A DNA stretch of 20,000 bases from Psammoneis japonica (Eukaryota): assembly GCA_008632985.1 (NCBI GenBank), contig QPGO01000116.1, forward strand, positions 236,727 to 256,726. The letters run 5' to 3'. Below are positions 1 to 20,000 of the stretch, in pieces. Position 1 is the first letter of the stretch; each line of letters starts with the position of its first letter. A program made the position numbers and the translations under genes. A model generated the notes under the pieces. It had not been told where the DNA came from. It searched no databases and saw only the letters and a list, made by a program, of their open reading frames with translations.

Positions 1-1040
1 TGTCAGCACTGGGGCTGACAGACAGGCAGCTGCAGCTTTGGCTGCAACAACAATTGCGCCAAGTTCCAGCAGCACATTGTGCAGACTTTTGGGCAGTGCT
101 GCAAGGTCACCTGTTCCTTGTTGTGCTGGAAAAGAGCACATTGTTGTGTTGGAGAGATGTCTGCTTCTGCACACCAAAGTGCCTGTGCCATTGGTGGCCG
201 CACATGCACAGCCACAAGCCCACAAGGGTGCCCTCAAGCAACTTTTTTTCTGTCTTGAACTTGTGATTGCTAAAGATCAGTGACAACAACGGCGCACCAT
301 TGTGGCTTTTTTGGAAATGCTGCCTTCCAAGACAAATTTGTGGTTGCTGATGACAGCAAGAACAACCTTGCCAATCTCTTGTCATTCACGTGCATCATGG
401 CCAAAGTGGTGCCACCCATTTTCGTGCCATTGTGCACCTTGTTTTCCAAGCAAATGTGCAACCTGCCTTTGTGATCATCTTTGAAAATCTTGTGGGAGTT
501 GAAGAGTGATCTTTTCTTGTCTCACTTGTGGCACCAAATTCATGCATGACAATTTCCTTGAGCATCTCGCTGGATGCAAGCATCAACCTGCGGGCCCACC
601 CCTGCTTTGTCTGCTGCAACTTTTCCCCAAAATGCCTTGACAGTGATGCAGTTTCCATTTGAGACAAGTGTCACAGCCAAAACCAAAGGAAGAAACCAGT
701 GCTTGAACTTGTTTGCCTTTAGTTTTTGTGGTGGATTGATGAACAATTCAGCAAAAATGCATCAGCTTGTTCCTTTTCCCGTGTGTGAACCCCACCTTGT
801 TTTTTTTTGGAGTGGAACAGTCTCTTCTTTCTTGAAATCAAGTCACATCATGCCAGCAAACATTGTTGAACATTGTGGTCATTCAATGAACAAGAAAGAA
901 CAACAGATTATCTTGCCACAATTGAACAAATGAACAATGTTCACAGTGTTTCAAGCTTGTCGAATGGACCCGCTCAACAAACAGATTTCGTTTCACAAAA
1001 ACAACAGAAGAATCAATTGTCTTGACACAACTGAAAAACA
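1..1040. other. TpA- and CpG-depleted domain of unidentified decayed repeat DNA
   Basis: Only about 3 TpA (near 271, 720 and 909, all in TTA/TAA context) and few CpG. No recognisable protein motif. Confidence 0.85.
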
Positions 1041-1321
1041 ATGAATGTATGTTCTCCTTGAATGGCCAGAAAATGAAGTAGTGCCTTCTGCTCAATCACT
1101 CGACGTTCTCTCGAGTCCCGGTGCACAGGTGAGTTGGCAACTGTTGTTGTCCTAGGATCAGCTTTGTACTGTATGAATGAGTTATGCTATTGCCACAACC
1201 TTATCTCCGCCTCATCTCGAAGCGTAGCCTCACGCTACCTCAAACTCACATGAATAAAGAATGCTACATTAGAAAGAACATGATTAAGCTACTTCTACTT
1301 CAACACGCTACCAGCCCATCA

Positions 1322-2758
1322 TTACGTCGAGCCATTCTCGTTGGATTGTAGGGAGATTTGCTGTTTCTTCATGTATTCCGAAACCATCTCATTGGATGGC
1401 TGGTGATTGGGTTGCTTTTTCAGATATTCCGAGATCAGCTGTGCACATCGTTCGCGAGAAACATTCGTGAAGCGCTGAATGATTTCGACGGCATTATTCG
1501 CAAAGTACGAGAGTGGAATGTATCCCACCATGTCCTTGTCCATGGCAAAGTACACTTCTCCAACTTCGGAGCTTTCCACTCCGAGTGGCGAAAGAAGTTT
1601 GAACAAAGCACAAAAGGTGACAGTGTTGGGAGGCGCATCTCGTCCCAACCGCCGCAAGTCGCGAAAGGGGCACATGCAATCCGGATCGTCGTCGCTGCTA
1701 TCTTGATCACTCTCCGTTTCGGACGACACGGTTGTGGCTGTGAGCAAGCTATCCACACGGAATACTTTGGCAACTTCGCCTTTGCGATGCCGATGGTGTT
1801 GATCCTTGTGAAGCAAACTCACGCCCTCCAGGATTTCATCGACTGTACTTGCAGGATCCGGCTCCTTGACGCGACCAATAATCCGAGCAGGGGCTCCCAC
1901 CGCTGTGGCACCCGACGGAATAGATCTTAGCACAATGCTGCCAGCTCCAATCTTTGCGTTGTCGCCAACATGAATATTACCAAGGATACAGGCACCCGCC
2001 CCCACCAAAACGTGTGCGCCGATTTTTGGATGCCGATCACCGGAATCTTTTCCCGTGCCACCAAGAGTTACACCATGAAGCAGGGTACATCCATCTCCCA
2101 GAACGGCGGTTTCTCCAATCACAACACCTGTGCCGTGGTCCAGCAAGACTCCAGCCCCAATCTGCGCCGCAGGATGAATGTCAACTCCAAAGACGGCTGA
2201 TGCCTGTGACTGGAAGAAGAAGGAGAGCATGCTCCTCTTTTTCTGAGCAAGCTTTTTTAGATACAAATGCCTCGCCGCCCGATGACACACCAACGATGCA
2301 AATCCCTTGAAGAAGAGCACCACTTCCAGTATCGTCTGACAGGCTGGATCGCGATTTAGAACGGCCAGTGCATCCTTACGAACCGCCTCGCCCATGGTAT
2401 GGCCCAGTTCTAGATATTCTAGAGCCTCACTCGTCTCGTCCAGAGCTGACGAAATAATATTTCGGACGGTCTCCAGAGAGCAACAGGTACCAGTGGTACC
2501 ATTGAGCAGACGATATGCAATCGTGGTGGCAACCGCATCGTCAAACGTTTCCACGTGAGGAGCTAGAACGGTCTGATCTAGCAGATACTGTAGCTCCGGC
2601 TCATTCTCGAGGGCCTGCAAAGCTTCATTGCGCAGCTGTTGGGACATGTCAGTTGTGGAAGTTCCGTTCATTTCTTCGTTATCAGAGGTTACACTTATGA
2701 CAGGTGAAGCGTGTAAGAGGGGAGTCGCAATCGCAACGCCGTTGGTTGCGGCCATCAT
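1322..2758 (-). CDS. cysE: Serine O-acetyltransferase (CysE/SAT family), 478 aa, apparently intronless, with a C-terminal EF-hand-like extension
   Basis: Hallmark SAT motifs RDPAC, FFKGF and FGVDIHPAAQIGAGVLLDHGTGVVIGETAVLGDGCTLLHGVTLGGTGKDSGDRHPKIG, plus hexapeptide repeats ending in VGAPAR. ATG at 2758, TAA at 1324-1322. Normal CpG/TpA content. Confidence 0.95.
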   Translation of the reverse strand: MMAATNGVAIATPLLHASPVISVTSDNEEMNGTSTTDMSQQLRNEALQALENEPELQYLLDQTVLAPHVETFDDAVATTIAYRLLNGTTGTCCSLETVRNIISSALDETSEALEYLELGHTMGEAVRKDALAVLNRDPACQTILEVVLFFKGFASLVCHRAARHLYLKKLAQKKRSMLSFFFQSQASAVFGVDIHPAAQIGAGVLLDHGTGVVIGETAVLGDGCTLLHGVTLGGTGKDSGDRHPKIGAHVLVGAGACILGNIHVGDNAKIGAGSIVLRSIPSGATAVGAPARIIGRVKEPDPASTVDEILEGVSLLHKDQHHRHRKGEVAKVFRVDSLLTATTVSSETESDQDSSDDDPDCMCPFRDLRRLGRDAPPNTVTFCALFKLLSPLGVESSEVGEVYFAMDKDMVGYIPLSYFANNAVEIIQRFTNVSRERCAQLISEYLKKQPNHQPSNEMVSEYMKKQQISLQSNENGST

Positions 2759-2916
2759 GGTTGATTATTTCTTTCTTGCGTTGCCTGCAGAGCAGACATG
2801 ACCGAAGATGAAATCTTTCCATGCGCGCGAACATTTTCGACGACCGTCGAACGCGCACTCCGTCGTGTAGATACAGACAAAAACAAACCACGGACGCACA
2901 AGCAAATCGACAATGC

Positions 2917-3726
2917 AAGATGCTCTGTGATTTTTGAACCCTTCGACTGTCGCGATGCCAGTCCAAAATGCAAGAAAACAGCATGAAGACTAAGTGCAAA
3001 GGTTGATGGTCCAAGACACTGACATCTTTTCAGACCATTCAATCAAGGTTTTTGTCTCCCCTCCATGCTCCTCCGAGTTTGTTCAAAGCCCAGCACATCG
3101 CAGTGCACCTGGGTGCCCTCAGAGTGCGTGCACGCCCTTCTCTCGCGAGAGGAAAAAGAGCTGCTTTTTTCCAAGGAGAGCACAACTTGTGTTTCACCTC
3201 TCAACAACAACAGCACCACAGGTTGAGTCAAACACAGCCAAAGCACAGCCTCAGAGGAGGATGGGGCAAGAAAGAAAATTCTCTCTCTCGAGCGGCAAAC
3301 ATGCTCTCTCAAGATGAGCCAAAGATGCTCTGTGATTTTTGAACCCTTCGACTGCCATGATGCCAGCAGCCCAAAACACAAGAAAACAGCATGAAGGCTC
3401 CCTGCAATGGTTGATGGTGCAAGACACTGACATCTTTTCAGACCACCAGTCAATCAAGGTTTTTGTCTCCCCTTCATGCTGCTCCTCCTCTCCGAGTTTG
3501 TTCAAAGCCCAGCATGTCGCAGCACACCTGGGTGTCCTCAGAGTGCGTGCACACCCTTCTCTTGTGAGAGGAGAGAGAGCTGCTTTGGAAAACACAACTT
3601 GCGTTTCACCTCTCAACAACAACAGCACCACAGATTGAATCAAACACAGCCAAAGCACAGCCTCAGAGGAGGATGGGGCAAGAAAGAAAATTCTCTCTTG
3701 AGCGGCAGACATGCTCTCTTAAGATG
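2917..3726. repeat. Two tandem copies of an approximately 405-bp unit (2917-3321, 3322-3726), followed by G20 at 3729-3748
   Basis: Both copies begin AAGATGCTCTGTGATTTTTGAACCCTTCGACTG and share long identical blocks such as CAAACACAGCCAAAGCACAGCCTCAGAGGAGGATGGGGCAAGAAAGAAAATTCTCTCT. Confidence 0.95.
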
Positions 3727-4539
3727 GTGGGGGGGGGGGGGGGGGGGGCAGCTCTCCTCATTCTGAAATGCACCAGCTCTCTGCACACACCAGTTGATTT
3801 GACAGTGTTTTTGTCAAGCCACTGGGCTTTTTTGCAAACTTTTTTTGCGCTGACATTCATGCAGAAACACGACTGCAAAGAAAAACAAAGCTTTCCTGTC
3901 TCACAGAGGTTGGTGCTGGTGCTTTAAACTGCCATCTGCAGACATTGTGCCACTTGCAGCTCACCTCTGCTGGTGCAGACAGATCTTCAAATGAGAGACT
4001 TTTGAACGAATCACAAGGTTTTTGGTGCATTCATGTGTGTTGTGCACCATGTTTAGCGCCAAACCCATGCAAGAAGATTGAGCTCCTAAATGAAGATGAG
4101 CCAACAGCCATCATGACCAAGGCAAGAATGCAAAAATTCCAAAAAACAGGTTGACAAGGCTGCATTCCATGTGTGGTCATTTGGCTGAAATTTGAGTTTG
4201 GTCTTTTTCTTTGTCTTGTGGAGAGCTCGCTGATTTTTGCTTGTGTTTGGTGTCACTCTTTCTCTCTCCTTCAGATTGTTCAGCAGCTCTTTTCACAGTG
4301 CTTGTCTCTGTCAACTTGGTGCCAGCTGCAAACAACAACAACAACAGGAGCATCTCAATGAGGTGCACTTGCACACTTTTTGCACGGTGTTGTTGTGGAC
4401 GATGCCTTGCAAGCACACATCAATTTTTTTTTTGCAAACAAAAGAGACACTCTCTGCACTCAGTGTTTTGAGAGTGCATGGCAGCCAGCCAAAATGCCCG
4501 CAGGCAAGTGCAAAAAGTGTGCCCAACATTGCAAGCCAG

Positions 4540-5400
4540 GGTGACAAGAACATTGGCAATGTTCTGGTGTTGTGGCCATTTTGCTTCACTTTGAGGCAGC
4601 AGAACTTCTTCTTGTCCAAGCAATGAAATTTGTCAACATTTTGTCACCACCTCTTCTGCCACCTTTTGTGTTGAACAGCTGCTCTGCAGTCAACAATCTT
4701 TTCTTCTGTGCCAGTGTGCAACTCACTCAAGACTCCACCACACAGGACAGTGAACAACTTGATCTTTCTGACAGCCAGCAGCAAACAAAAAAGAGGCAAG
4801 TCAGCTTCCCCAATTTTTCTGCCCAAACAAGTGCAGTCAGAAGGTTGCTCTTTTGCATCTGAGCTTTTTGTTGCACTGTGAAAAATGTCAGCATTTTTTG
4901 TCAAACAACAGCTGGGCATGGTGGAAGAAACAGAAAAAAAGTGGCTCAAAGAGGCAGCAAAAACAGCCGCACACAACAGAGTTTCCTGTCAAGTTGTTCT
5001 CAGAAAAAATGACTGCCTTTTGAAGATTTTTCATCATTTGTTGTCCACACTGCCCAAGAAATGAGAATGATGGCCAGCACTTCAAAGAGAGCAGACTTGA
5101 GGAAAGAAGCAACAGAAATTGGGCAGAAGCCCACTCAAACTTGCTCACACAACATGCGTCAGCAGCATCACACTGTCTCCAACCAGCTCTGTTGAGATTC
5201 ACTCTTCTGGCAACCATTTCAGAGCTGCCTCAGTCCTCCAAGGTCTGATCCTGAGGGCAAAATGGACAAGCTTGTTGTCACAACACTTTCTAAAAGTCAA
5301 AGAAGAATGACGACTGCTTCTGCAGCAGTCCACATGCTTCACGTGGAGCACATGAGTGCTGATGCACATGCCCTCTTTGCACCATCTAATTTCAGTGCTT
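4540..5400 (-). mobile_element. Possible heavily decayed MULE-type transposase C-terminus
   Basis: KKKFCCLKVKQNGHNTRTLP (about 4555-4612) resembles the C..CKQ.GHN.RTC knuckle. An upstream CKEGMCISTHVLHV is faintly SWIM-like. The motifs are imperfect. Confidence 0.25.
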
Positions 5401-7371
5401 GAGCCTTTAAATCTTGATTTCCAAAACACTCCTGTTGACCAATGACAAGATCCTTGCCAGACTCCAATGTGCCATCTTGGGGTTGGGGGGTTGGCCTCTT
5501 CTTGCTGCATTGTGTGCCCTGGAGCTCCCCTTGCTCAAATGCCCAGCAGAGTTTCTCTGGATGCACATTTGCAAAAACATGTTGGCTTGGTGATCACTGT
5601 GCTGCAGTGCCCTCTTTCTCATTCTTTTTGTGCATGCTGAAAAAGAAAGAGGTGTGCTGATCTCATTCTCAGCTGTCTAGCATGATTTTGCCACTCTCCA
5701 AAATGAACACTCTCCAAAAAGAACAACCTCTTGTTTTGCTTTGCTCAACCTTTGTTTTGTTTTGCTCAATGAAAAAATCATCTCATGATGTGTGTGAGAG
5801 ACTCTTTTTGCAGCTCCACTGCAAGACAGGGGCACTCCAGAATGAAAAGTCAAACATGACCCACTGTCAAACAAAGCAAGCATGCTTGTGAGTGACACAT
5901 CATGTTTTTGTCAGTGCTGGTGCTGGCTGCATTTCAGCAGATGTTGACAAGTTTAAGTTGTCTTGTGTGTCCTCCATTGTGCTTGGTTTGACAATTTTTG
6001 ATCCAGTGGGCTGTTGACTTGCACTTGGCACAAGTGAGCAACTCATGGCTGTTGTCCTTTTTTCATTGACAAAGACTGCACCCCAAAGCCCCCAACTCAC
6101 CCTGATGGCAAGTGTGCCAGTGCCAGCAAAAATCTCACAAAAGAGCACCAGTCACTGCACATGTTTCTGTGTGGCTTTTTAAAAGCAGCCAAGCAGTGGG
6201 TGCCTCAGTGCAACTGAACTCTCAGATGCCCCCCTGGCTGATGCCCCACCTGCTTCTCAACTTTTTTTTTTGTGTTGGCTGGCAGGCTTTTGCTCACAGT
6301 TGTTCAAAAAGAAAATGAGGTGTCACCTCTCCAGGTGGTTGGCTGGTCAGATTTGGCAAAGTCTCCTCACTTTGGCAAGCTGAGAATCTGGACATCCCAT
6401 TGGCAACTTTGAGCACTTTGGACCACCACATCCTGGTGACTTGAGGCCAAATCTTGGGCTCACCCTTCACACCAAGTTTGCTGCACCACACATTGTCGCT
6501 GCCCAAAAAGCCACAAATTTTCATGGTGCTTGATGTCACAACTTGAAATTGCACCCAATGCAGTGCACAGTGCACACAACAAACAATGCCACATCTTCTG
6601 CTGTGGGGCTTGTTTTTTGTTCATGTGTTCTTGGTTGTCACATCATTGATCAAGGTGCAAGTGATGTTTTGCAACAACAAGATGGTGGTTGACTTGAGGG
6701 TGGCCATGTTGGATTTCTTGTTGCTGCTGACCATCATGCAATGTTTGGACATGCTGGATGCTGGCAAGCAGTGGCATGCTTTGCAAACTTTTGCAGCACT
6801 CTCATGACTGTGGCACACTTGAGTTTACAGCCACTGGGGGTTTGTTGCCACCATTGATGGCACTGTCTGCATCTGCAACATTTTCAGTTTCCAAGTGTGA
6901 GGCAGTCATTGTGTGGACAATGTGCCACACATGATTTTCAGCAAGGAGCAGTGGAAATGGGCAGCAGCGGTGGGCCTTGCAGCGCTGAGCCAAAATGTTC
7001 ACAGTCATGGTTGCCCTTCCTTGTTGCACCCACATGTTGTTTGTGCAGCACTTTTTTTTTGCCAGCTGGCTGCCCCTCTTGCAGGAGTCTGCTGTGCCAG
7101 AGCTGCTGCCCTGGCTGGTGATTGGCCACCCAGTGCTGTGTGTTCATCACATCTGTGGCCACCCCTCTTGCAGAAATCTGCTGTGCCAAAACAAACTTCA
7201 CCAGGAGGGTTGGGGTCTTGCAGCAGTGTGCAAGATGTGTGCTCATTGCATCCATGGTGTGGTGCCAAAGCCACTTTTGGCTTTTGTTTCAAATGTGCTG
7301 CTCACTGGACAGTGGATTTTTTGATCTTCCACTGGTGCATGTCCTGCCACATGCATTGCAGCTCTTGACTG

Positions 7372-9250
7372 CTTTCTTCTGTTTTTTTTCTCTTCTTTTG
7401 GTTTTGTCTCGGGAGTGAGGTTTTTGTTAGAATGATTGGGGTCTGTGGTGTTGGAAGAGGTTGGTCTGGGGAAATGTGTGGTGGGAGGGGTGTGCGAAGC
7501 GCGCTTGGGGATGGAGAGAAAAAGGGTGGGCCCAAAGTGCAGACAGATGGTTGAAGTGAGGAGTTGTCAGCAAGGGCAGGATGGCGAAGTGGCTGAGCTT
7601 GGCAAGAAGAGAGATGGTGGGAGAGAGCACAGCCAAAGTTGAGGCTGAGGATTTGAGAGGCCCAGAGTTGAGGTGTGACGGTGTGACAAGAGGAGCCAAA
7701 GTGGTCTGGGGAAAGTTGTTTCCAGGCCATGTCAGAGTGGGTGAGGAGGTTGGAAGGGGCAAGCAGTGAATTGGCAAAGGCAGAGAAGGATGCTTGAGAG
7801 TTGGAGAAGGAGGATGGGTTTGTCCAGGGTGTGGTTTGGGAGGAAGGGGTGGGATGGAGGCGGATGTTGAAGAGGAGGAGCCAAAGAAAAAGACGTGAAA
7901 ATGGTGCCCAATGCTGCCCAGGTGGTCAAATGTAAAAGGGAGGAGGAAGAGTCCAGCTTGTTTGATGGCATCAATGACACATCAGAGCTGGGGGCAGATT
8001 GTGCAGAGCAACCAAGAAGCTTGTCCCGTGTGCTGCTGAGGTGAACCTTGTTTGGTGGGTTTTCAGGGACAGGCAACCGGGTGCAGGAAGTGGGGGAGCT
8101 GGTGGTGCGGTGACATCAACAGCCAAGAAGTGATGAGTGGACAGATGGGGCGTTGGGTGGTGTGGAGCCAGGAGTGAGTTGAGCGCTGATGTCAGCAGGG
8201 CATTGAGGGGTGGTCAGCTGGGAGACCTGCTGGTTCAAGGTGGGCTTGTTGGTGGGAGAGGCACAGGCCACAAAGGGGGGCCCAGGGTGTCAATGATGGT
8301 GTGGATGGTGTCACAAACATGGTTGGACAGCGGGCTTTTGTGCATTTTGGAGCATGCAAAGGCGCGGTCACCGAAAGGGTCAGGGCGGGCGTGGCCACAT
8401 GGGCAGTCATGTTGGAGCAAAGCAGAGGAGATCATTGGGAGGCACAGCTTGCAGAGGAGAAGGAGTGTGAAAAGGTGTGATGGAAGTTGGTTGGCAGCAG
8501 AGGATCGGGAGGGAGAGTGCAGGCAAAGGCTTGTCAGAGGAGACAGAAGGGGTGGAAGGGCTGGTTGTGTGGAAGGATCAGCAAGGATCAGAGGAAGGGT
8601 GTTGGTTTTGTGGTGGTGCAAATGAAGGTGTTGTGCAAGACTGCACAGGTCATGGTGTTTGATGGCATGCTTGAGAGAGGCAAAGGAGGGGGAGTCAAAA
8701 CGGAGGAGAATGGGAGCACAGTGAAGGAAGATGCGGCAGAGGGAGGAGAGGGTGGAGCGCGGGTTGGACCATGAGCTAAGAGAGGCAGAACAGCTCAGAG
8801 GGAGGTGAAAGACGTCACCACCATTGAGTGGGATGCCATGCTTTGTGCAGCACATTGATTTTGTCAGAGAGGTGATGAGAGCTGGGGTGGCGATGGCGGA
8901 GATGTCGCGACATCCGACACCGCCTGAAGGAGCGGGCAGGTTGGCGATGAGTTTGGCAGCTGAGGGGAAAGGGGGAGAGTGTTGAGCAAGGCAAGCAAGG
9001 AAATGCAAGGAATGGCCAATGATTTTGTTGACAAAAGGCAATGCCCATTGGAAAGGGGGGTTGAGAGATCGTTGGAGTGCGCGAGGTTGAAGCACGCATC
9101 AGCCACGAGGATGTGGGTGGCAGAAGGGATGGAGCATTTCTGGAAGAGGGTGCTTTGTGTTTGTTCATTGGTGAGGCGGTTGGCGAGGTGTCGGAGGTCT
9201 GAGGCAAAGGATGTGGCTTTGTCTTGAATGAAGTTTGCTGTGGCAGAGTC
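7372..9250 (-). mobile_element. 5'-truncated, frameshifted non-LTR retrotransposon with a restriction-like endonuclease (CRE-clade-like)
   Basis: Motifs in order on the minus strand: post-RT LPAPSGGVGCRD (about 8900-8940), zinc finger CPCG...DPFGDRAFAC...NHVCD (about 8310-8410), RLE motifs (R)PADI 8199-8188 and AVDVT 8123-8109, LLPFTFDHLG 7945-7916. A-rich 3' tail at about 7372-7410. Confidence 0.8.
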
Positions 9251-10153
9251 GCAGTCATGTGCTCTCCTGCCTGCGACTCCCGACAAAAAAAGCGGGGGCC
9301 CAGTTTTTGGAATGCGTCATCACACTGCCTGTTAAACCTAGAGGATCACACCCCACAGTGTAGGGCCCTGGGTTAAACCATCATCATGCAATCTGTTGCA
9401 CACATTAAACTGCAGTCTGCTCCAGCTGGGCACATGGACAGGCCTTTTGTTGCACGCAAGAAGGAGAGTGAGTGGGATCTTGTCTGAGAACTCTTGTTTG
9501 ATTCTCATTGAACAAGTTCCTCAGGAGAGAAAAGACTCGTCTGCAGCATATGGCAGGCGCATCATCCTCCATGGCACATTCGTTCAATGGCATCTTCTTG
9601 AAATGGATGGTGTCTGCCATTGCGGTTCGTTTGCGTGCACTGTGTGTGCTGCACTGTGCACGCACCATGCGCTCGTCGTGGTCCGTCTGCGTGGTGCGGC
9701 ACGTAGCACTTGGTACGTCCTAAGTGGCTCATAACCCACCTCGCCAGACAAAATAAACTGGGGAGCCCCAGCTCCCGCCTAAACCCATAAGCCTACTGGT
9801 GGGCCGATTGATTGATTCCCAGATTGTCGAAAGAGTTCGCCAAACCGTTAAATCTATATATCTTTTATACATTGCTAATGATTGACGTTAACTCGACGGA
9901 CTCGATTTCCGCGAAAGGGCGACAAGCCAAAGCGACAAGCGACATTACATCGCTCACAAACTCGCAAAAAAAGCACACACACACGAATATCCACCAAGGC
10001 CACAACGTGGTAGGCGGGAATAAAGCGAACAACGCGGAGCTCCAACGGCAAATAAGAACCTGCCGACTGTCGAGAACCGAGAAACTCCTGCCAACAGTCG
10101 TAAGCCACAAAGGGCCAAGTGGACTAGACGAGAAGAAGAAAAGTAGTGTGACG

Positions 10154-11901: not shown

Positions 11902-12201
11902 GGGCTGTCAAAATGTTTAGAGCTGGTAGTGATATTCTAAAGATGTCGCTACTTCAAATCTCTTGTTGCAAACCATCTTGGAAATTCTGTTGATTGCTTC
12001 AACATACGTATGTGTTCGTTTGGAGTGAACAAACTTTGATAGGAACATTGCGTCCCGTAGGGGAAATGAGTGAAAGTACTACTCTAATTCAGGCTTGCGC
12101 TACGACTAGAGTAGTGCACCTGTCGCCTGATGTGGTGAGAAAGACCAGTGGCGCAGTCAGAGGGTGCATAAGTATCCAGACAAATGACACTGAAACTTGT
12201 G

Positions 12202-13143: not shown

Positions 13144-13413
13144 TTTCAATTTTGCGCTGTCGGAGTTGGATTTTTTGTGCGCCCGACTTTTTGGCGCGAC
13201 AGACAGAGTACCTTAGTCGAATAAGTCGAAAGATTTTTCGCGCAGAATCGTTCGCGAGCGCGCGTTCCCAAATCTCGCAGCCCAACAGCCCAAAACGGAA
13301 AACACGTCCATGAGCATCGAATCATCAATCGCACATACAAAGCAACAGCAACAAAACAGCCAAGCTATTCCATTTTGTATTGCAAAGCAAAGTCCACCAC
13401 ACATCGCACAATC
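13144..13413. promoter_or_regulatory. Shared divergent promoter with two E2F-consensus sites
   Basis: 270-bp CpG-rich gap between head-to-head ATGs. TTTGGCGC at 13190-13197 and TTTCGCGC at 13236-13243 match TTTSSCGC. Confidence 0.5.
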
Positions 13414-14622
13414 ATGTCTAAGCGATCTCAAGATATTCAGCTTACCAAGGATGATGACGAAGTAGAGGTGGGAGACAACGCGGGACAGTTTACAAAGGCG
13501 GGAGCACAAGAGCTGAAGAAACGTCGGATTGTATCTGTGAAGAAACAGTAAGTTGTTGTGTTGATCGTGTCATTGTACTTGATGCGGGTTTATATGCCGT
13601 GTCTCACCATGGTATTGTTTGCTCTTGTTCTAATTCAGTGAGGCGAAGCACGCGGCTCTGTCGTCTTCTCCCGCTCGAGCCAATCCGTTTGCGAAAATAT
13701 CCTTGCTACAGCATCTGCTTCGGGTTCGGCGGCTAAGCCTGCAGCAGCACCTGCGGCTTTAACCGTTGAGCAACAGAAAAAGCAGCTCATGCGTCAAATG
13801 CTGGGTTACATTGAGACCAACACCCGAGATTATCCTCGCGCCGTGCTCAAGGACGCCGTTGTCGAGTACAGTTTTCACTTGCGTGCGTTGAAGGTGCGGG
13901 ACGCATGCAATGAAAAGGAGAACAGCGGTGCTGTCAAACCTTCGACCAAGGAGAACAGCAACAGCACCGGTGCTGCGAGTCCCTTTGCTGGAGGATTCAC
14001 GGCTCCAGCAGGCGCGACCGCCGCTGCTCCTGCTCCTGCTCCTGCTCCCACTTTTGGTTTCCTTACTGCGCCATCGACAACTGCGCCCGCAAGCAGTTCT
14101 ACGTCAGGCTTTTCGCTTGCTGCTCCTCCCACAGCAGCCCCAGTTGCGGCCACTACAAGCCCTACTACGAATCCCTTTGCACCCGCTTCTCCTTCAGCCG
14201 CGGCACCCGCTGTTACTGCAGCCAACTCTCCTCAAGGGAACGCGAAGGCTGACGAGACAGGAGGCTCTGATCCCAATTGGACTGAGCGCTACGCAGTTCG
14301 TGCCATGCTCTACAGGCAGAGTGACGGTGAGGATACCCCCAAATTCTATGGCACGCATGCCCTGGTTATCAGTACTTCCAAAGAGAACGGTAAAAGCCGC
14401 ATGATTATGCGAAACGAAGTCAAGAAGATTATGCTCAACCTGAACATTGAGAAGGGCATGCCCTTTGAGAAAAAGGTAGAAAAGGGCGGGAATGGAAAAG
14501 CCAAAGCATCTTGTTTCTTTAAGGCCTCGGAGAACGGGACACAGAAGCGATTTTATTTCAGAGTCAAGCCAGAAAATGTGGATGCCTTGTACAACATCTT
14601 GACAGAGTTGGCGTCAGAGTAA
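13414..14622 (+). CDS. Nup50/Nup2-like nucleoporin (N-terminal importin-alpha-binding motif, Phe-containing low-complexity region, C-terminal RanBP1-like domain); exons 13414-13547 and 13639-14622 with an apparent 1-nt deletion near 13703
   Basis: Exon 1 translates as MSKRSQDIQLTKDDDE...GQFTKAGAQELKKRRIVSVKK (Nup50 N-terminal pattern). GTAAGT...CAG intron 13548-13638. Motifs NPFA, TFGF, GFSL. C-terminal RAMLYR...GKSRMIMRNEVKKIMLN resembles a Ran-binding domain. Confidence 0.8.
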
Positions 14623-14800: not shown

Positions 14801-15879
14801 AATAGTTTAGTCGTAAAGTAAATTCAACTTTGCAGAAACATTAGTGTATTGCAGACATGTCGGGAGAAACAAGGCTGTTAATCCCTTGACAGTTTTGTTT
14901 TGGCAGGACTTGTTTCGAATCACGTTGCGGGTGCGCTTTGAACAGTGCTGCATTTCCAGTCATTTCACATTCTTTCTCGGCATCGTTCTCATTTTTCTCA
15001 TTGCCTTCAATCCCATTCCTTTCAACTTGACCTCTTCCAGTTCCCAACACACTCCTTGCAATTCTCACAGCTTGGGTTGTTGACTGGGATGTCATCTGCA
15101 CCTTCCATGATCTGACAATTGACTTGTTGAGTGAAATGGCTTTGTGTGTGGGATGCTCTGTCACTTGTGCCTGGGCTGGGTGCTCCTCCAAATGTTGCAT
15201 AAAAAAGATCTGCTTTCACCTTGTGTTTGTTTTTGCATCCTACATGTTTCAAGTGTTCCTCCTCATGTGAAATGTCAAGGATGATGTGTTCAATGTTGAT
15301 CCTCAATGCATGCCTGTCTCTTTCCTGTTTGGTCAGCAGTGTGCAAAGGAGGGCAAATCAGCAACCCAGGCACAGCAGCACAAAGCCATTCCCTTGGAAG
15401 CTGTGTGCACTGGCTTGTTTTCTGCATTTTCAATCAACTCCCTTTTTGGCAGTTCTGGCCTTAGTCATCTGTGCACCAAGGGCTCTTTTCATCACAGCAC
15501 TTGTGCTTTGCACCAGTGCAAGGGGATGGGAGTTGCCTTGCCACCCTGCCTGAGATTTGCTGTTGCCTCCTTGTTGACCACATGTCATTTTTGATGGGCT
15601 TGCATGTTGCCTGCAGTTGCCCCTGCACTTCCTGTGGCTTCCACTCTCCTGCATGTCTTTTTTTGAACATGGCACAAGCTCAACTTTTCCACACAGTTGT
15701 TGTGCAACAAACATGAAAACCTCACAAGTGGTGCACTCTATCCAGCAATTCCTGCTGCAGTGCCATGGCCAAGCTGCAGCAGGCATTGTTCTGTGCATCA
15801 ATCTTGGAACAACAAAACAGCCCAATGGCCAGATTTAAAGTTTGAACAGGAAAGAGTCATGGCAACCAGCATTGAGCAC

Positions 15880-17050
15880 AATGAGGCACATTGTGGGAAT
15901 CAACAACTGAAGCACAAAGGATGCAGAGATGTGAAATCAAGGTCTTGCTGACTGCAGCTGTGTGTGCTGCACATGCACCATGTGTGAGGGAAACAAGAGT
16001 TGTCTTTCCAGTGCACCACATGCAGATGGAGAGCACTGCACTTGGGAAGATCCTGTGCACTTTGTGTTGCTGAGATGAGACTCTGTGTTGGTCATTTGGC
16101 AAATTTTCCCTGCTGTCTTTAGAGTCTCATTGCAAAGAAGGCTTTGCCACAGCAGCCCCCAGCACAAACTCCTGCAAAACACAAAAAAAACTGTTCATGA
16201 AGATGTTCTCCAACAATGGCGCCAAATGCCAGAAATCAGCTGGTCAAGATGAGAGGTCAAACATCTCCAGAAATGCTTGCATTGTGAGCTGGCTGCTCTC
16301 TCCACAGTGCAAAAGGCTTTGGGCTGGCAAGAAAAAGGCCACAAGAATGACAGCATTCATGAAAAAGTGCTCAGCGCCATTTTTGACATTCTTTGCATCA
16401 ACAAAGCCAGAACATTTTGGAAAACAGCAAGGTGCATTGTGTGGTCAACAATTGAAAAAGCAAGAGCAAAGGGTGCACTGATGTGAGAGCAAGATCTTGC
16501 TGAATGTGGTGGTGTGTCACACATGATGCCTGTGGTGTGAGTGGAAAGCAAGCACTTCCTTTCTGGTGTGCCTTGTGCAGATGCAGACAGTGCTGCAATT
16601 GGAAGGATCCTGTGCATTTTGAATTGACAAAGGGAGACCCCATGTTGGTCATTTGGCAATCTGCTTGATGTGTTGCCCAAGAATCTCACATTGCAGCAAA
16701 AAGTTGGGATGTCACAGTTTTTGCACTGACTCCTTTGCAGAAAAACATCAGAAGACTTGCTGCCATGAAAATCTCCTCCAACAGTGGTGCCAAATGCAAG
16801 GGTGCTGTTGTGTCTTGCACAAAATCAGCTGATGAAGAGGAGAGATCAGCTCCACTCAGAGCACTTGCCAACATTGCTCTCCAAAGAACACATGAAAGGT
16901 GCTTTGAGATGGGGTGGGGTTCACACAGCAATGGCAGCTGCACCAACAGCAGAGTGGTGCTCAAAAAGCACACTGCTGACATTTGTTTTGTCAACAAAGC
17001 CAGAACATTTTGGAGAACAGTTTTCCCACACACCATGGTGGTTGCCAACT
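15880..17050. repeat. Two diverged tandem units with a period of about 550-590 bp, family unknown
   Basis: Colinear shared blocks: GATCCTGTGCA and TGTTGGTCATTTGGCAA (about 16050-16102 and 16607-16659), CTCCAACARTGGYGCCAAATGC (about 16208 and 16776), TCAACAAAGCCAGAACATTTTGGA (about 16398 and 16991). Confidence 0.8.
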
Positions 17051-17306
17051 CTGCAATGGAAACAAGCCAGAGGCAACATTCTGGGAACCCCGTGCACTCT
17101 CCAAATGAACAATGACTGTGTGTGTGATCTCTTCAACCCATGGTCCTTCATCTCATCCCCAGCTGAACATGTTTGCACAGCTCTGCTGAAACTGCCAGAA
17201 ACTGTTGGAACATTGGGGGTGCAAGGCAGTTTGCACAGGTGAAGGGTGCACTGATGGTTGTTGATGATGTGGCAAATTTGTGTTTGCAGCTCCTCTTGAG
17301 TTGTGG

Positions 17307-17755
17307 TGCAGCATGCATGCAGACAAAAGGTCATTTTTGTCACGCCCTTTGTGACATTTAAAGGCTGTAACACGTCACCGTGACACATCAACTCTTGTTG
17401 GCAGCTGTGTGTTGCACTCCTCCCCATGTGTCACGCGTCCATGCGGCTCTTTGCTGACGTGCACTGACACTGCACGGTTTTGGCGGAACAGTGTGGGTGC
17501 GCACGAAGGAACGTACAGAACTGCACAGAGTTTTACGCGTTCGACAGTGATCAACGTTGCTGCAGACAACTCCCACTCAGGGTTTCGAACCCCTGGCCTC
17601 CTGCCCAATGGTTGCGAGATGAACCACTCCGCTGTGAATTCACAACGCAGCATGCATGCAGACAAAAGGTTGTTTTTGTCAAGCCCTTTGTGACATTTAA
17701 AGGCTGCAACACGTCGCCGTGATGCATTGACTCTCATTGGCAGCTGTGTGTTGCA
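17307..17755 (-). mobile_element. Miniature non-autonomous LTR element (TRIM-like), 449 bp, with 110-bp LTRs at 17307-17416 and 17646-17755
   Basis: Direct repeats about 90% identical with TGCAGCA...TGTTGCA inverted termini. 4-bp TSD GTGG at 17303-17306 and 17756-17759. Polypurine tract GGGGAGGAG (minus strand, 17425-17417) abuts the 3' LTR. An empty site is present in the paralogous sequence at about 19789-19807. Confidence 0.85.
17570..17642 (-). ncRNA. Degenerate tRNA-like sequence (Pol III A and B boxes) inside the miniature LTR element
   Basis: Minus strand reads CAGCGGAGTGGTTCATCTCGC (A-box-like; D-stem GCGG/TCGC) ... CAGGGGTTCGAAACCCTG (B box in a T-arm hairpin). The anticodon arm is short and unpaired, so this is not a functional tRNA. 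Confidence 0.6.
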
Positions 17756-18587
17756 GTGGGTCTTGTGCTCACTTTTTGGCTTTTGCACCAGGTTGACACA
17801 ACAACAGCGTGCATCATGCCTCGCTGCTGGACAACACGGCGGAGACCGTGCATGAGCCTCTTGTGTGTGGCAACGTGGTGTTGTCGACACGCACCTGGGA
17901 AGCCACGACCACAGGAGGGCGTGGCTCCAGGTCTCAGGCAATTCCAGAAGGATGCCAAGAGAGCATCCGTGTGAAGCACACCAGCCCGTCGTCTGGCCCA
18001 CGATGGCAGCGTGATTCCACACGATGACATCACTCGTGCATGGCGCATGATGGCTTGATTCGCATGATCCACCAATGTGAACGCACGATTGATTTGATGC
18101 GATCCAAATGCGAACGAACAGAGATTTGGCAAGATTCCCCATTCGCACGATCCCATTTTCTCTGCTCTAAACTGGCTCACAATTTTCACAACGACAAAGT
18201 CGCAACACATCTTCTTTTCAGCACCCAGCACACACACAGGGCAAGTGGTGGCCAGCAACAAAAATGTGTTTGCACTCCATGCAGCAAGAGTTCAGGGATT
18301 GGCAAGACTGAGTGTGTGCCAGCCAGCAAGCCGTGAAATCCCAACACAGAAGAAGCCAAGAAAAAGGCTGGCTGGCAAGTCATCAAGAATCCAAAGGTGT
18401 GAGTTGTGTCAGTGGATGATTGTGGCAAACAAGCTGGCTGGACAAAGGCAAAGAGACAATCTCTGGAGGGCCTTGCTGCAAGGAAGCTGTCAAGGGTCTG
18501 TGCTGAAAGAGGGTGCAGTGATGTTGTGTTGGGCCAGAGACATGGCTGGGCAAGGATGCAGCAGCTGAGTGTGGAAGCAAAAATGAT

Positions 18588-19500
18588 TTGAAGGAGTGGG
18601 TGCATGATGCCATTGCTGAGTTGGATCAAGAACAGGCAGATTGTCACATGGAGACCACAAGAAAAATGAGAGAGCATGTTGGAAAAGAATGTTCAGGTGC
18701 CACCGGAGATGCAGGCACTGGTGTCTCTGAGGCAGCAGAGCAACAAAACGGAGGAGCCGGAACATCCATCGGGCGATGCCATGTCTCAGAAAAGGACAAG
18801 ACAATCGGAAGGAAGCAATGTGATCACCACATGAAACAGGATGCAATCTGCAAGATGCAGAAGGCAAAGGCATTTTATGTGGTTGTGGGACAGTGCACTG
18901 AGGCTGTCCACCACAAGGTTGAAGGAGTGACAGTGTCTGAGAGGGTCACAAAAATGTGGGACAGTGTGGTGGCACCATTGGAAATTCTCAAGTCAATTTT
19001 GTTTGAGGAAACAAGAGAATCTGCTTGCATGTCCAGGTGGCTGAGGCTTGGAAGCAGCTGGCACTCATTTGTCAGGATGAAGGAGCAAGAGGCACTTCAA
19101 GATTGTTGCTGGAATCAGCTCATGAGTGGTGTTGAGATGGCGGAGAAGGGTCTTGCAACAAACTCATTCCTGAACAATTGTCAAGAAAGAAGGTGGGTTT
19201 AACAGGGATGCCAACAATGTCTGAAACAAAGAAATGAGAAAAGAACAAGGTGTCTGTGGCACCACCAATGGAAGGCACAAGGAATGTTGTCATGTCTTGA
19301 AAGACCTGCACAGGCAGTTTGAGCTGGGGGGATGGATGATTTTCCCAATTTGGCTCAGGAGACACTGCAGGTGTTGGACACATGTGGGTCCAAAAAAAAA
19401 CCTGAGAGCACAAGCTTTGTGCGAAATGAGAAAAAGCAGACCAAACGCTGGAGCTGGAAATGCAACAAGGTTGGGCATGTGAAAAAGGGCTGCCCTTCCT
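18588..19500 (+). mobile_element. Degenerate gag region of a Copia-type (diatom CoDi-like) LTR retrotransposon
   Basis: QADCHMETTRKMREHVGKECSG, AFYVVVGQCTEAVHHKVE, LEILKSI and later LKDLHRQFELGG/DDFP resemble, from memory, diatom Copia gag motifs (EYVG..Y, GQC...KLE, G.D.YP). Stops and frameshifts are present. Confidence 0.6.
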
Positions 19501-19680
19501 CCTTTGCTCCATGATGATGATGAGATCATTCATCAGTGGAGTCAGACAGTGCAAGCTTTGGGAATTGGCAGAGCAGTCAAAGTGTGGGTTGGCATGGTTT
19601 CCAAATTTTGCCCTCCTGTGGTCATCGCGCATTGGTCAATCAACTGATGGCTCTTGTGCAAAGTGTGAAGGAGTGTGTCA

Positions 19681-19970
19681 GAACATTGGGGTGCTGTGGG
19701 CAGTTTTTTGCAGGACAGACAACAACATTGCAGTGAAGTGTGCACTGATGATTGTTGATGATGTGGCAAATTGCACTCGCAACTCCGGTTGATTGCAGGT
19801 CTTGTGCTTGCTGTTTGCTTTTGCGCTGCTGGTTTGACACGGCAGCAGCGTGCAGCACCAACACGGAAATGTGTTTGCCAAAAATCTGTGCAGGGTGAGT
19901 TCAGGATCGGTAGACTGAGCGCAACAACCAGTCAGCAAGCCATGAAATCCCAACAGAAACATGATGCCAA
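19681..19970 (+). repeat. Dispersed repeat copy homologous to 17208-18360 but lacking both of its insertions
   Basis: Colinear shared blocks: GAACATTGGGG, GTGCACTGATGRTTGTTGATGATGTGGCAAATT, GGTCTTGTGCT, CAGCGTGCA, AAATGTGTTTGC, GAGTTCAGG, CAGCAAGCCRTGAAATCCCAACA. Confidence 0.85.
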
Positions 19971-20000
19971 GAGGAGCCTGAGCATTCGAGATTTTTTTTG

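Follow-up and report, generated by a model that had tools for sequence, protein, structure and literature searches.

RIP, a premeiotic, RID-dependent process of ascomycete fungi, converts CpA to TpA (C:G to T:A) and raises TpA. Deamination of 5-methylcytosine turns methylated CpG into TpG/CpA, in vertebrates as well as in methylated diatom transposons. Among the editing enzymes, APOBEC3 acts on cDNA and ADAR on double-stranded RNA, the latter yielding A to G; to our knowledge, ADARs are found in animals only. Polymerase-eta mutagenesis of WA motifs, which belongs to non-canonical mismatch repair, produces A to G changes in TA and AA alike. All mutational defences against mobile DNA known to us (RIP, APOBEC) are based on cytosine deamination and push sequences towards A+T. 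Deaminase editing of retroelements in animals has been described (PMC4866542). In dinoflagellates, 5-hydroxymethyluracil made by TET/JBP enzymes has been reported on transposons, with enrichment on repeats together with 5-methylcytosine, in a paper whose discussion cites older work where T was preferentially replaced in the dinucleotides TA and TC (PMC11572971).

The present survey covered one 20-kb stretch of diatom DNA (the window, whose positions are used throughout). An original prediction, made from its letters alone, had proposed that TpA was erased from its repeats by a process distinct from both 5-methylcytosine deamination and RIP.

Results and discussion

Three TpA-free domains beside ordinary genes

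Three domains, with limits drawn from the positions of TA, were delineated together with two flanking genes that served as controls:

1..1047, unstranded: TpA-free domain 1, running off the window start; CpG observed/expected (O/E) 0.23, CA/TG 1.83/1.88
2992..9332, unstranded: TpA-free domain 2; CpG O/E 0.20; non-coding by Pfam; part at near single-copy depth, part at ~6-20 copies
14880..20000, unstranded: TpA-free domain 3, running off the window end; CpG O/E 0.26; contains transposon relics
1322..2758, minus strand: serine acetyltransferase gene, flanking control; Pfam SATase_N and Hexapep; ordinary TpA and CpG
13789..14622, plus strand: last exon of a RanBP1-domain gene, flanking control; Pfam Ran_BP1

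Dinucleotide counts gave TpA O/E ratios of 0.04-0.05 in the three domains against 0.52 (1050-2950) and 0.57 (9500-14900) in the flanking genic stretches, which bears out both the near-absence of TpA from the non-genic domains and its ordinary level in the adjacent genes. Only 3 TpA were found where base composition predicts 75 (1-1000), 15 where it predicts 401 (2990-9330; 14 over 2995-9330) and 15 where it predicts 333 (14950-20000). With the genic O/E of 0.55 as baseline, the Poisson tails are 2e-14, 1e-74 and 2e-58 for domains 1, 2 and 3, respectively. The large TG/CA excess that had been noticed was likewise recovered, at about 1.6-1.9 (CA O/E 1.83-1.89 and TG O/E 1.57-1.88, compared to 1.11-1.22 in genes), and CpG O/E was 0.20-0.26 in the domains against 0.99 in genes. 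As predicted from the open reading frames (ORFs), which nearly always end in TGA, the stop trinucleotides of domain 2, counted on both strands in all frames, comprise 289 TGA, 19 TAA and 9 TAG, while the corresponding counts in the second gene stretch are 185, 98 and 84. AA was not depleted (O/E 1.23-1.39 in domains vs 1.04-1.22 in genes), nor was TT, GC was not raised, and TC depletion was not clear (0.78-0.96 vs 1.04-1.12). None of the domain 2 ORFs, among 102 ORFs scanned, reached the Pfam cut-off.

The closest relatives of the serine acetyltransferase are from raphid pennate diatoms (55-61% identity), and a transcript-like contig of X2 spans its gene. On the other side, X2 record 11 is spliced at 13547/13639, and the transcript-like contig stops at 14817, which leaves 63 bp to the start of domain 3. 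The label 'silent' used for the domains is based on their CpG loss and on these gene positions.

The domains resemble RIP-mutated DNA in their dense, dinucleotide-specific transitions, apparently made in place in transposon copies and on both strands, as well as in the ruined reading frames and the domain-scale dinucleotide skews beside normal genes. Direction and target are, however, opposite: here TpA is destroyed, and A:T becomes G:C. The RIP indices of domain 2 are accordingly inverted, with TpA/ApT at 15/268 = 0.06 and (CpA+TpG)/(ApC+GpT) at 1352/709 = 1.9, and RIP was rejected.

The sequence is reproduced by read-built contigs

Logan contigs of the public run X1 (depth 56-63) reproduce the TpA-free sequence, differing from the assembly at 8 positions over 3669-5274, 4 over 5704-7470, 3 over 8573-9308 and 4 over 9752-17331. 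The original prediction had named an assembly or masking artefact, to be seen from raw reads, as a way in which it could fail, and the read-built contigs carry the same sequence. Such an artefact could consist in a modified base of heterochromatin being misread, or in a polishing error turning TA and CG into TG/CA, and it draws some force from the fact that the sole reads share their sample with the probable source of the assembly. Given this shared sample, the agreement excludes an assembler or polishing artefact while leaving room for a sample-specific oddity. The independently assembled contigs nevertheless match with 3-8 differences per 0.7-1.8 kb, and with strand-dependent misreading one would expect half the depth and a contig break at each site, whereas depth is 59-63 in TpA-free contigs and 56-63 in genes. 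Moreover, Tyr-less relics of the Gag family described below occur in protein databases from other assemblies. We give next to no credence to an artefact.

Erasure probably follows domains, and copies mutated independently

Two repeated segments bear on how the erasure is delimited:

2917..3726, plus strand: tandem duplication of ~405 bp (copies 2917-3316 and 3322-3726); 86.7% identity over 414 columns
17291..17757, unstranded: very high-copy repeat; summed depth up to ~73,000 vs ~60 for single-copy DNA

In domain 2, the summed depth of X1 stays at 66-122 along 3336-4669 and 6004-7337, where a single copy corresponds to ~60, and reaches 360-1354 along 7338-9338. The boundary of TpA and CpG loss, at ~2991, lies inside the first tandem copy (copy A). 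Of the predicted repeat restriction, the confinement to domains held, and a dependence on duplication was not seen: the near single-copy depth of much of domain 2, together with a boundary that splits copy A, makes 'domain-restricted' the better term. RIP, by comparison, targets duplications along their whole length. It may be, on the other hand, that the near single-copy DNA of domain 2 consists of old repeats diverged to below 85% identity.

Between the tandem copies there are CG versus TG/CA differences as well as three adjacent CA/TG double swaps. The repeat at 17.4 kb (17291-17757) has 5 TA where 27 are expected and 23 CG where 31 are expected; many of its other genomic copies carry TA at five listed positions where the window has TG/CA (7-65% of depth), and CA/TG double swaps separate the window copy from others at 17462-3 and 17606-7. 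Other copies of the surrounding element skip 17291-17757. Together with the sister relics described below, the differing CA/TG outcomes among tandem and repeat copies indicate that the copies mutated independently.

A Gag relic reveals the polarity of the change

Domain 3 contains a relic that allowed the direction of the change to be read:

18561..19511, plus strand: Ty1/Copia-type retrotransposon Gag relic (translation; HMMER, 16 matches)

The relic reads through 990 bp in a single frame, free of frameshifts but interrupted by two stops (TAA at 19200, TGA at 19320); among its 330 codons are 20 for Cys, 12 for His and 1 for Tyr. At ~19452-19493 it has a degenerate zinc knuckle, the first Cys of which is replaced by Ser. 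The best HMMER match (P0121; E 1.8e-24, 40% identity) carries Pfam zf-CCHC and has 17 Tyr in 343 aa; it is through this alignment that the CCHC zinc knuckle of a Ty1/Copia Gag is recognised. More distantly related is L005, a Gag-Pol of 1644 aa in which RVT_2 was recognised, a domain seen in L005 only; tblastn of this protein against the window matched the Gag part alone. The full set expected of a Ty1/Copia element, with RVT_2 reverse transcriptase, integrase and LTRs, was not recovered around the relic, although a 40-nt direct repeat (17239-17278 and 19733-19772) and 'goes back' joints in X1 contigs hint at a repeated unit.

For the polarity test, nine intact relatives defined 16 columns of conserved Tyr, at which these relatives themselves keep 118 of 137 Tyr. 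The window relic keeps none of the 16 (4 His, 4 Cys, 8 other) but 56 of 126 other conserved columns. Conserved Tyr were also sparse in five database relics, which may come from the same organism as the window: 2/14 in P0126, 1/9 in P0123, 0/10 in P0125, 0/12 in P0127 and 5/10 in P0134; a further sequence, L002, keeps 12/17. In P0126, 12 of 14 were lost (11 to His or Cys), while 82 of 94 other conserved columns were kept. The predicted polarity, TA to CA/TG, is thus seen as conserved Tyr (TAY) giving way to His (CAY) or Cys (TGY) in the window Gag and the five database relics. In the closest pair, L003 Gag and P0126 (76% identity over 197 aa), of 13 Tyr, 7 are replaced by His, 3 by Cys and 1 by Phe, and 2 are kept; 11 of 21 TA-containing codons change exactly as TA to TG/CA would have it, compared to 1 of 16 CG-containing codons for CG to TG/CA (5 of 6 CGN Arg are kept), and 129 of 160 other codons are unchanged. 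P0123 and P0125, which are 66% identical, differ in what replaced a given Tyr, with His in one copy where its sister has Cys.

These data also bear on the idea that the elements and spacers were always TpA-poor, or that TpA is disfavoured by selection, for instance to avoid TA-targeting transposons or nucleases. TpA is indeed low throughout the window, even in genes, and the promoter stretch of the serine acetyltransferase gene (2759-2990) is TA-poor (3 vs 15.6 expected) yet CpG-rich. The intact relatives, which the original prediction allowed might be equally TpA-free, are however not so: in five metagenome loci whose Gag frame is open, TA O/E is 0.47-0.77 and 10-20 Tyr are present. Replacement of all 16 conserved Tyr would not be expected of a working Gag, the relic carries in-frame stops, and TA is present in other copies, within this genome, of the repeat at 17.4 kb. 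A native composition or selection is therefore highly improbable.

Both strands are affected, and TpA loss depends on the flanks

CA roughly equals TG in each domain, strand-run structure does not go beyond that of genes (z -0.2 to -2.7 in domains, -1.7 and -2.9 in genes), and His:Cys at lost Tyr columns is 26:21 over six relics (4:4 in the window, 4:4 in P0127, 7:4 in P0126). Both strands are affected about equally.

This symmetry is pertinent to editing during retrotransposition, where an adenosine deaminase acting on transposon RNA or cDNA would let insertions arrive already hypermutated. Like the marks of APOBEC3 and ADAR, those described here would then be an enzyme-driven, context-dependent hypermutation disabling retroelements; the best-documented case is a retrotransposon Gag relic, and independent outcomes in sister relics are what separate events would produce. 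Editing of one strand, however, would leave a single type of change on the sense strand, either A to G or T to C, and the marks of APOBEC3 and ADAR are strand-asymmetric and limited to retro-copied sequence, whereas the relics mix His and Cys and the pattern is symmetric and domain-wide. DNA that was not retro-copied is altered alike, including the tandem duplication, which diverged after duplication, and unclassified near single-copy DNA. The boundaries track host genes rather than element ends, and an ADAR-like preference for a 5' U or A would deplete AA, which is undepleted. Editing of the ADAR/APOBEC type was rejected on the one-strand pattern, and hypermutation during retrotransposition in general appears distinctly unlikely.

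Among the residual TA of the domains, 21 of 32 are YTAR, compared to 48 of 264 in genes (Fisher 6e-8) and 47 of 406 in intact transposon loci (2e-11). The depletion ratios are 0.007 for RTAY, 0.044 for YTAY/RTAR and 0.26 for YTAR, so that TA loss decreases in the order RTAY > YTAY/RTAR > YTAR, a rule based on these 32 residual TA, on genes as the baseline for product excess, and on small Tyr counts. The pattern fits a preferred T to C change in R-T-A (equivalent to A to G in T-A-Y). By eye, the product in the window Gag (His or Cys) did not track the preceding base.

TpA loss is separable from CpG decay

Two segments have lost TpA while keeping most of their CpG:

17758..18300, unstranded: TpA erased, CpG mostly kept; TA 1 vs 29.8 expected, CG 28 vs 38.1
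9407..9704, unstranded: TpA erased, CpG kept, ~12 copies; just outside domain 2; TA 1 vs 16 expected, CG 15 vs 20.8

Summed X1 depth is 731 over 9339-10005. TpA loss is separable from, and faster than, the CpG to TpG/CpA decay in the same domains. Decay of methylated CpG is similar in that silent domains lose a self-complementary pyrimidine-purine dinucleotide in favour of TG/CA, and its pattern (CpG loss with TpG/CpA excess) is seen here, accounting, on sequence grounds, for the CpG part only. It does not act on the T:A pair; TpA loss is more complete (0.04 vs 0.2) and present where CpG is kept, and the flank preferences are opposite, CpG being depleted most in the YCGR context and TpA in RTAY. 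That neither 5-methylcytosine deamination nor RIP can remove TpA, as had been argued, follows from chemistry, since cytosine deamination cannot yield A:T to G:C, and agrees with these segments.

A regional mutation bias would leave an identical sequence pattern without any dedicated function. In heterochromatin that replicates late or is methylated, an error-prone polymerase, or a biased step of mismatch or base-excision repair, would slowly drive TA to TG/CA, and the result would be a mutational equilibrium instead of a hypermutation pathway. Several observations are in keeping with it: the pattern spans whole domains including near single-copy DNA, intermediates exist (P0134 and L002), and CpG is also decaying in the same domains, with 9 of the 17 differences listed between assembly and X1 in domain 2 being CG against TG/CA. 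The TpA rate would, however, have to be well over tenfold the background, given the Tyr lost from P0126 beside the other columns and CGN Arg that it kept, and the window Gag is still one frame. A polymerase-eta-type WA signature would deplete AA too, and was rejected on the AA ratios given above, while GC-biased conversion would have increased GC at the expense of AA/TT, and neither effect is observed. We consider a regional bias rather unlikely.

A possible mechanism

In-place, domain-targeted A:T-to-G:C hypermutation at TpA is the best reading of the window, with a probability of roughly 0.7. It builds on the observed depletion and its boundaries, their confirmation by read-built contigs, the polarity, the independent outcomes seen between sister copies, the speed compared with CpG and with the protein backbone, and the flank dependence. 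The process would probably act in situ on DNA and find its targets through chromatin state, not repeat homology, and it may have a defence function. The second process that had been proposed, making A to G (T to C) changes at TpA, is supported by the polarity test, with the enzyme at candidate level.

The substrate would be the silent, largely transposon-derived domains of a raphid pennate diatom, in which nearly each TpA would be turned in place into TpG or CpA. The target would be chromosomal double-stranded DNA across entire silent domains, on both strands, and the process would halt ~60-250 bp from adjoining transcription units and run at a rate far above ordinary decay. Our preferred guess is that an enzyme modifies one partner of the T:A pair in TpA and that replication fixes the transition. 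As a first candidate, a TET/JBP-type 5-methylpyrimidine dioxygenase might oxidise thymine to a base that mispairs with G, which would entail a modified thymine (5hmU or base J) in the DNA and a gene for such a dioxygenase; as a second, adenine might be deaminated to hypoxanthine. The outcome would be irreversible inactivation of transposon genes, with Tyr replaced by His/Cys and TA-containing motifs gone.

The 5-hydroxymethyluracil of dinoflagellates offers a parallel in its thymine-directed modification of repeats, and suggests a possible route for singling out T at TpA (PMC11572971). It is presented there as a silencing mark, with no mutational erasure reported in the parts of that paper considered here (PMC11572971). 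The organism group is also another one, TC is not clearly depleted here, and the diatom case is known from sequence only. Searches of the literature returned nothing on TET/JBP thymine modification in diatoms, and no description of a TpA-erasing process.

More tentatively, the hypermutation may represent a dedicated, chromatin-targeted DNA-mutating defence of diatoms with a polarity opposite to that of RIP. In this view, an enzyme drawn to silenced transposon domains would chemically change the T or the A of TpA, replication would fix the change as A:T to G:C, and Tyr codons and TA-containing signals would disappear within a few generations. The enzyme might be a 5-methylpyrimidine dioxygenase with thymine as its substrate, or else a naturally occurring adenine deaminase that works on double-stranded DNA.

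Conclusions

The signature is a polarised, fast and context-specific A:T-to-G:C change limited to silent transposon DNA, and it matches no described pathway. DNA that is TpA-free, CpG-poor and punctuated by TGA only gives rise to many spurious long ORFs, and TpA erasure conceals transposon proteins from profile searches (0 of 102 ORFs matched Pfam); as a consequence, diatom annotations and repeat libraries may be misled systematically. The Tyr-to-His/Cys test is a simple screen applicable to any genome. If a chromatin-targeted TpA-mutating enzyme is indeed at work, it would be the first natural A:T-directed mutator in genome defence. A dedicated enzyme would bring new chemistry to genome defence and possibly a natural TpA-specific A:T-to-G:C DNA editor, and it would explain the neutralised Copia-type elements in diatom genomes.

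TpA depletion and the limits of the domains

The original prediction had described almost complete loss of TpA from the non-genic DNA next to genes with ordinary TpA, a large excess of TG and CA, and stop codons that are nearly all TGA, and both its counts and its description proved right. Counted in 500-base bins, TpA occurred 0–3 times against 22–42 expected throughout 1–1000, 3001–9000 and 15001–20000, and 13–24 times in each bin within the two gene stretches. The positions of the TA dinucleotides place the limits of the depleted domains at 1–1047 (domain 1), 2992–9332 (domain 2) and 14880–20000 (domain 3). With the genic observed/expected ratio (O/E) of 0.55 as expectation, the Poisson tails for the three domains were 2e-14, 1e-74 and 2e-58, respectively. 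CA stood at 1.83–1.89 and TG at 1.57–1.88 in the domains, compared with 1.11–1.22 in the genes, and the stop trinucleotides of domain 2 comprised 289 TGA, 19 TAA and 9 TAG. These figures describe one window, and the reads all derive from one sample.

Dinucleotide content of the domains and the genes
1–1000: TpA 3 observed, 75 expected; TpA O/E 0.04; CpG O/E 0.23
2990–9330: TpA 15 observed, 401 expected; TpA O/E 0.04; CpG O/E 0.20
14950–20000: TpA 15 observed, 333 expected; TpA O/E 0.05; CpG O/E 0.26
Genes, 1050–2950 and 9500–14900: TpA 61 and 203 observed; TpA O/E 0.52 and 0.57; CpG O/E 0.99

Two genes flanking the domains were recognised with Pfam:
1322–2758, minus strand, serine acetyltransferase gene
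RanBP1-domain gene, by a Pfam domain match

The best relatives of the acetyltransferase share 55–61% identity and include proteins from source-named raphid pennate diatoms (Epithemia, Amphora, Seminavis and Nitzschia). A public run listed as 'DNA?', X2, spans the genes and leaves out 100 and 91 bases at 12746/12847 and 13547/13639, as expected of introns, and thus behaves like transcript contigs; its cover is absent over 3336–12006, which is not to be taken as silence. The acetyltransferase promoter and 5' leader (2759–2990) hold 3 TA against 15.6 expected and 19 CpG against 13. The 3' end of the RanBP1-domain gene carries a tandem duplication of approximately 112 bp (14576–14798, 87.5% identical) with ordinary TpA and CpG. 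Within domain 2, the plus strand of 7000–9330 shows a strong purine skew (G 0.41–0.42, C 0.12–0.16, GC skew up to +0.49), and this part, repeated 6–20 times, contains no recognisable protein in any frame.

Authenticity of the TpA-free sequence

That the missing TpA might reflect an artefact was assessed with Logan contigs from the public sequencing run X1, which contains 85% of the words sampled from 1000–10900 and whose contigs have a depth of 56–63. The separately assembled contigs carry the same sequence; an independent assembler thus recovered the TpA-free DNA, at a depth matching that of the genes.

Coverage of the window by X1 contigs
1–2801: 2 differences to the assembly
3669–5274: 8 differences
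5704–7470: 4 differences
8573–9308: 3 differences
9752–17331: 4 differences

Two half-depth paths per site, as expected if a base were misread differently from the two strands, were not seen in the X1 contigs. As the assembly itself probably derives from the X1 sample, the comparison excludes errors of assembly and polishing and does not replace a second isolate. Between the assembly and X1, 17 differences in domain 2 (3097–9251) fell among the best 40 of 386, of which 9 were CG versus TG/CA, and the remaining ones in this set include one adjacent TG/CA double swap and one TG/TA; among these best 40 of 386 differences, the most variable site class in domain 2 is still CpG. A run of approximately 23 G lies at 3727–3749, at the end of the second copy of a tandem duplication; reads seem to be cut there, and 3717–3759 was flagged.

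A Gag relic in domain 3 and repeats in the domains

The three domains contain 102 stop-to-stop ORFs with a length of 70 aa or more, none of which gave a Pfam match at the curated cut-off (the top match below it was Cys_rich_CPCC, E 0.0016), and the domains therefore looked non-coding until a Gag frame was read by eye. Among the three frames read over 18100–19800, one is interrupted by only two stops over approximately 18560–19511 and has a zinc-knuckle-like motif at its end:
18561–19511, plus strand, Gag relic of a Ty1/Copia-type element

A HMMER search with this sequence against 1.84 billion representatives returned 16 hits, the best being P0121 (E 1.8e-24, 40% identity, 343 aa), which carries Pfam zf-CCHC, and a distant Gag relative on the metagenome contig L005 is part of a 1644-aa Gag-Pol with RVT_2. 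Judged by these relatives, the relic is the Gag of a Ty1/Copia-type element. A profile search with alignment A2 gave only 3 hits; in metagenomes, the 5-sequence alignment A4 located 5 loci, each of which carries an intact-looking Gag. No Pol relic was found in the window, where tblastn with the L005 Gag-Pol matched Gag only. A word-indexed protein search for longer relatives of the Gag ORF yielded 511 candidates, none significant, and a viral-contig scan gave 122 pattern matches, none confirmed. Frames over 7400–9335 examined by eye held nothing recognisable. ARAGORN and Rfam (at gathering and E-value thresholds) detected no RNA gene in the window, and a tRNA-like T-arm considered at approximately 17560–17625 is unsupported by either.

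Summed contig depth above the single-copy value of approximately 60 identifies parts of the domains as repeats.

Summed contig depth along the window (single copy approximately 60)
3336–4669: 68–105, close to single copy
4670–5336: approximately 560
6004–7337: 66–122, close to single copy
7338–10005: 360–1354
16676–18676: 6,900–73,000

The repeat at 17291–18676 is of very high copy number (depth 6,900–73,000 versus approximately 60), with approximately 1,200 copies of the part around 17.4 kb, and contains a 109-nt direct repeat, 90% identical, at 17308–17416 and 17647–17755. Other copies of the surrounding element skip 17291–17757, and this piece therefore looks like an insertion. A 40-nt direct repeat (17239–17278 and 19733–19772, 95% identical) brackets the Gag-bearing unit, and elsewhere in the genome copies run from 19772 back to approximately 17756, which together suggest that a Gag-only unit of about 2 kb is repeated in tandem or in an LTR-like manner. 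Directly upstream of the gene starting near 9812, the segment 9407–9704, repeated approximately 12 times, is either a young target of the TpA-losing process or a natively TA-poor element.

Tyrosine codons give the direction of change

Were the element TpA-free by nature, its intact relatives should be so too. The five metagenome Gag loci instead have a TA O/E of 0.47–0.77 and encode 10–20 Tyr, in frames that are fully open in four cases and hold one in-frame stop in the fifth (L004). In the database protein P0121, 343 aa include 17 Tyr, 4 Cys and 5 His; in the window relic, 330 codons include 1 Tyr, 20 Cys and 12 His. Sequences were aligned with MAFFT, and a column was taken as conserved when at least 60% of nine intact relatives shared the residue, or scored on eight when the target itself was among the nine.

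Fate of conserved Tyr in Gag relics (P codes are database relatives)
Window relic: Tyr kept 0/16; lost to 4 His, 4 Cys, 8 other; other columns kept 56/126
P0126: 2/14; 7 His, 4 Cys, 1 Phe; other columns 82/94
P0123: 1/9; 5 His, 2 Cys, 1 Phe; other columns 44/57
P0125: 0/10; 2 His, 6 Cys, 2 other; other columns 48/74
P0127: 0/12; 4 His, 4 Cys, 4 other; other columns 50/75
P0134: 5/10; 4 His, 1 Cys; other columns 56/71
Nine intact controls, each against the other eight: Tyr kept 118/137

Tyr is encoded by TAY, His by CAY and Cys by TGY, and replacement of Tyr by His or Cys, read against the intact relatives, corresponds at the protein level to TA to CA and TA to TG. The polarised comparison thus bears out the predicted conversion, with no conserved Tyr kept in the window relic (0/16) compared with 118/137 in the intact controls. 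One environmental Gag with a fully open frame, L002 (198–1127), has His or Cys at 4 of 17 conserved Tyr; its TA O/E of 0.47 is the lowest among the five loci. This Gag may show the same process at an early stage, in a different population.

TpA loss is fast and separate from CpG decay

The closest intact/relic pair, the metagenome Gag L003 and P0126 (76% identity over 197 aa), allowed the two dinucleotides to be compared codon by codon. Out of 21 TA-containing L003 codons, 11 were changed exactly as TA to TG/CA predicts, 9 were unchanged, several of which permit silent changes, and 1 was changed otherwise. Only 1/16 CG-containing codons was changed as CG to TG/CA predicts, with CGN Arg kept in 5/6, and 129/160 of the other codons were unchanged. 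Similarly, 17758–18300 holds 1 TA against 29.8 expected and 28 CG against 38.1, and 9407–9704 holds 1 TA against 16 and 15 CG against 20.8. These codons and segments together argue that TpA loss is separate from CpG decay and faster; on this sequence comparison, it is also far faster than general decay. The window Gag keeps a single frame over 990 bp without a frameshift.

The depletion further depends on the flanking bases. Residual TA in the domains is mostly Y-TA-R (21/32), a context making up 48/264 in the genes (Fisher 6e-8) and 47/406 at the intact transposon loci (2e-11). With the genes as reference, the depletion ratio is 0.007 for R-TA-Y, 0.044 for Y-TA-Y and R-TA-R, and 0.26 for Y-TA-R, which is close to multiplicative, with an approximately six-fold effect per strand bearing TA-Y. 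The excess of products over the genic baseline is larger for Y-TG-Y/R-CA-R (+12.4 per kb) than for Y-CA-Y/R-TG-R (+6.7 per kb), which tentatively suggests a preference for A to G in T-A-Y (equivalent to T to C in R-T-A). Between L003 and P0126, 6/7 Tyr-to-His changes follow a purine and 2/3 Tyr-to-Cys changes follow a pyrimidine, as this rule predicts; it is not visible in the window's own Gag, the codons of which were read by eye. CpG depletion relative to the genes is strongest in Y-CG-R (0.14) and weakest in R-CG-Y (0.31), a preference opposite to that for TpA and hence a further sign of two separate processes.

Both strands are hit, independently in each copy

Both products occur in each relic (His:Cys 26:21 over six relics), CA approximately equals TG in all domains, and runs of CA versus TG, the signature of RIP-like processive one-strand events, show no excess over the genes; both strands are thus hit, without long one-strand tracts. 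Sister copies bear independent outcomes. P0123 and P0125 (66% identical) have His in one and Cys in the other at the same Tyr columns. The copies of the tandem duplication of approximately 405 bp at 2917–3726 are separated by three adjacent CA/TG double swaps, and also differ where CG in one is TG or CA in the other. For the repeat at approximately 17.4 kb, CA/TG swaps distinguish other genomic copies at 17462–3 and 17606–7, and at five listed positions they have TA, at 7–65% of depth, where the window has TG/CA.

The left boundary of domain 2, at approximately 2991, falls inside copy A of this tandem duplication, the first 75 bp of which keep three CpG (copy B lost two), followed by a TA at 2991 that is absent from copy B. 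Approximately 200 bp separate this boundary from the acetyltransferase transcript contig, upstream of which it lies; the domain boundary next to the RanBP1-domain gene falls 63 bp past the end of that gene's transcript contig. The two-strand marks, the independent copies and the boundary positions together point to a domain-targeted event on chromosomal double-stranded DNA, rather than to RNA or cDNA editing or homology-guided targeting of repeats. The erasure, originally described as repeat-restricted, is better called domain-restricted: the boundary cuts through a tandem copy, and both 3336–4669 and 6004–7337 are near single-copy depth, although these two stretches may be old, diverged repeats.

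Candidate chemistry and relation to known processes

The results demonstrate a fast, polarised, TpA-specific, flank-dependent change from A:T to G:C on both strands of putatively silent, transposon-derived domains. Cytosine deamination, whether in RIP, by APOBEC or through 5mC decay, cannot yield A:T to G:C. GC-biased gene conversion, polymerase-eta mutagenesis at WA and ADAR-like editing would also deplete AA or increase G+C, and were set aside since AA/TT is not depleted (AA O/E 1.23–1.39 in the domains versus 1.04–1.22 in the genes) and G+C stays the same.

The change would act in place on the DNA, with targeting possibly guided by chromatin state. One plausible chemistry is deamination of adenine to hypoxanthine by an enzyme sharing the T-A preference that is typical of tRNA-type adenosine deaminases. 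Another is that a TET/JBP-type 5-methylpyrimidine dioxygenase oxidises thymine at TpA to a product that would mispair with G, as 5-formyluracil does. In PMC11572971, dinoflagellates are described as having a TET/JBP enzyme that makes 5hmU, enriched on repeats together with 5mC, and older work cited there reports preferential replacement of T in TA and TC. To that extent, dinoflagellate 5hmU offers a precedent, as a mark, for the thymine oxidation route.

Like RIP, the process wrecks transposon DNA by in-place, dinucleotide-specific mutation beside untouched genes. Unlike RIP, it runs in the opposite direction, and the indices are inverted (domain 2 TpA/ApT 0.06, (CpA+TpG)/(ApC+GpT) 1.9). Full-text searches of openly accessible papers brought up no account of TpA erasure in transposons, for diatoms or any other organism. 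We file the process as a transposon-directed hypermutation with a new specificity and, necessarily, a new chemistry, for which 'defence' is an interpretation of the effect.
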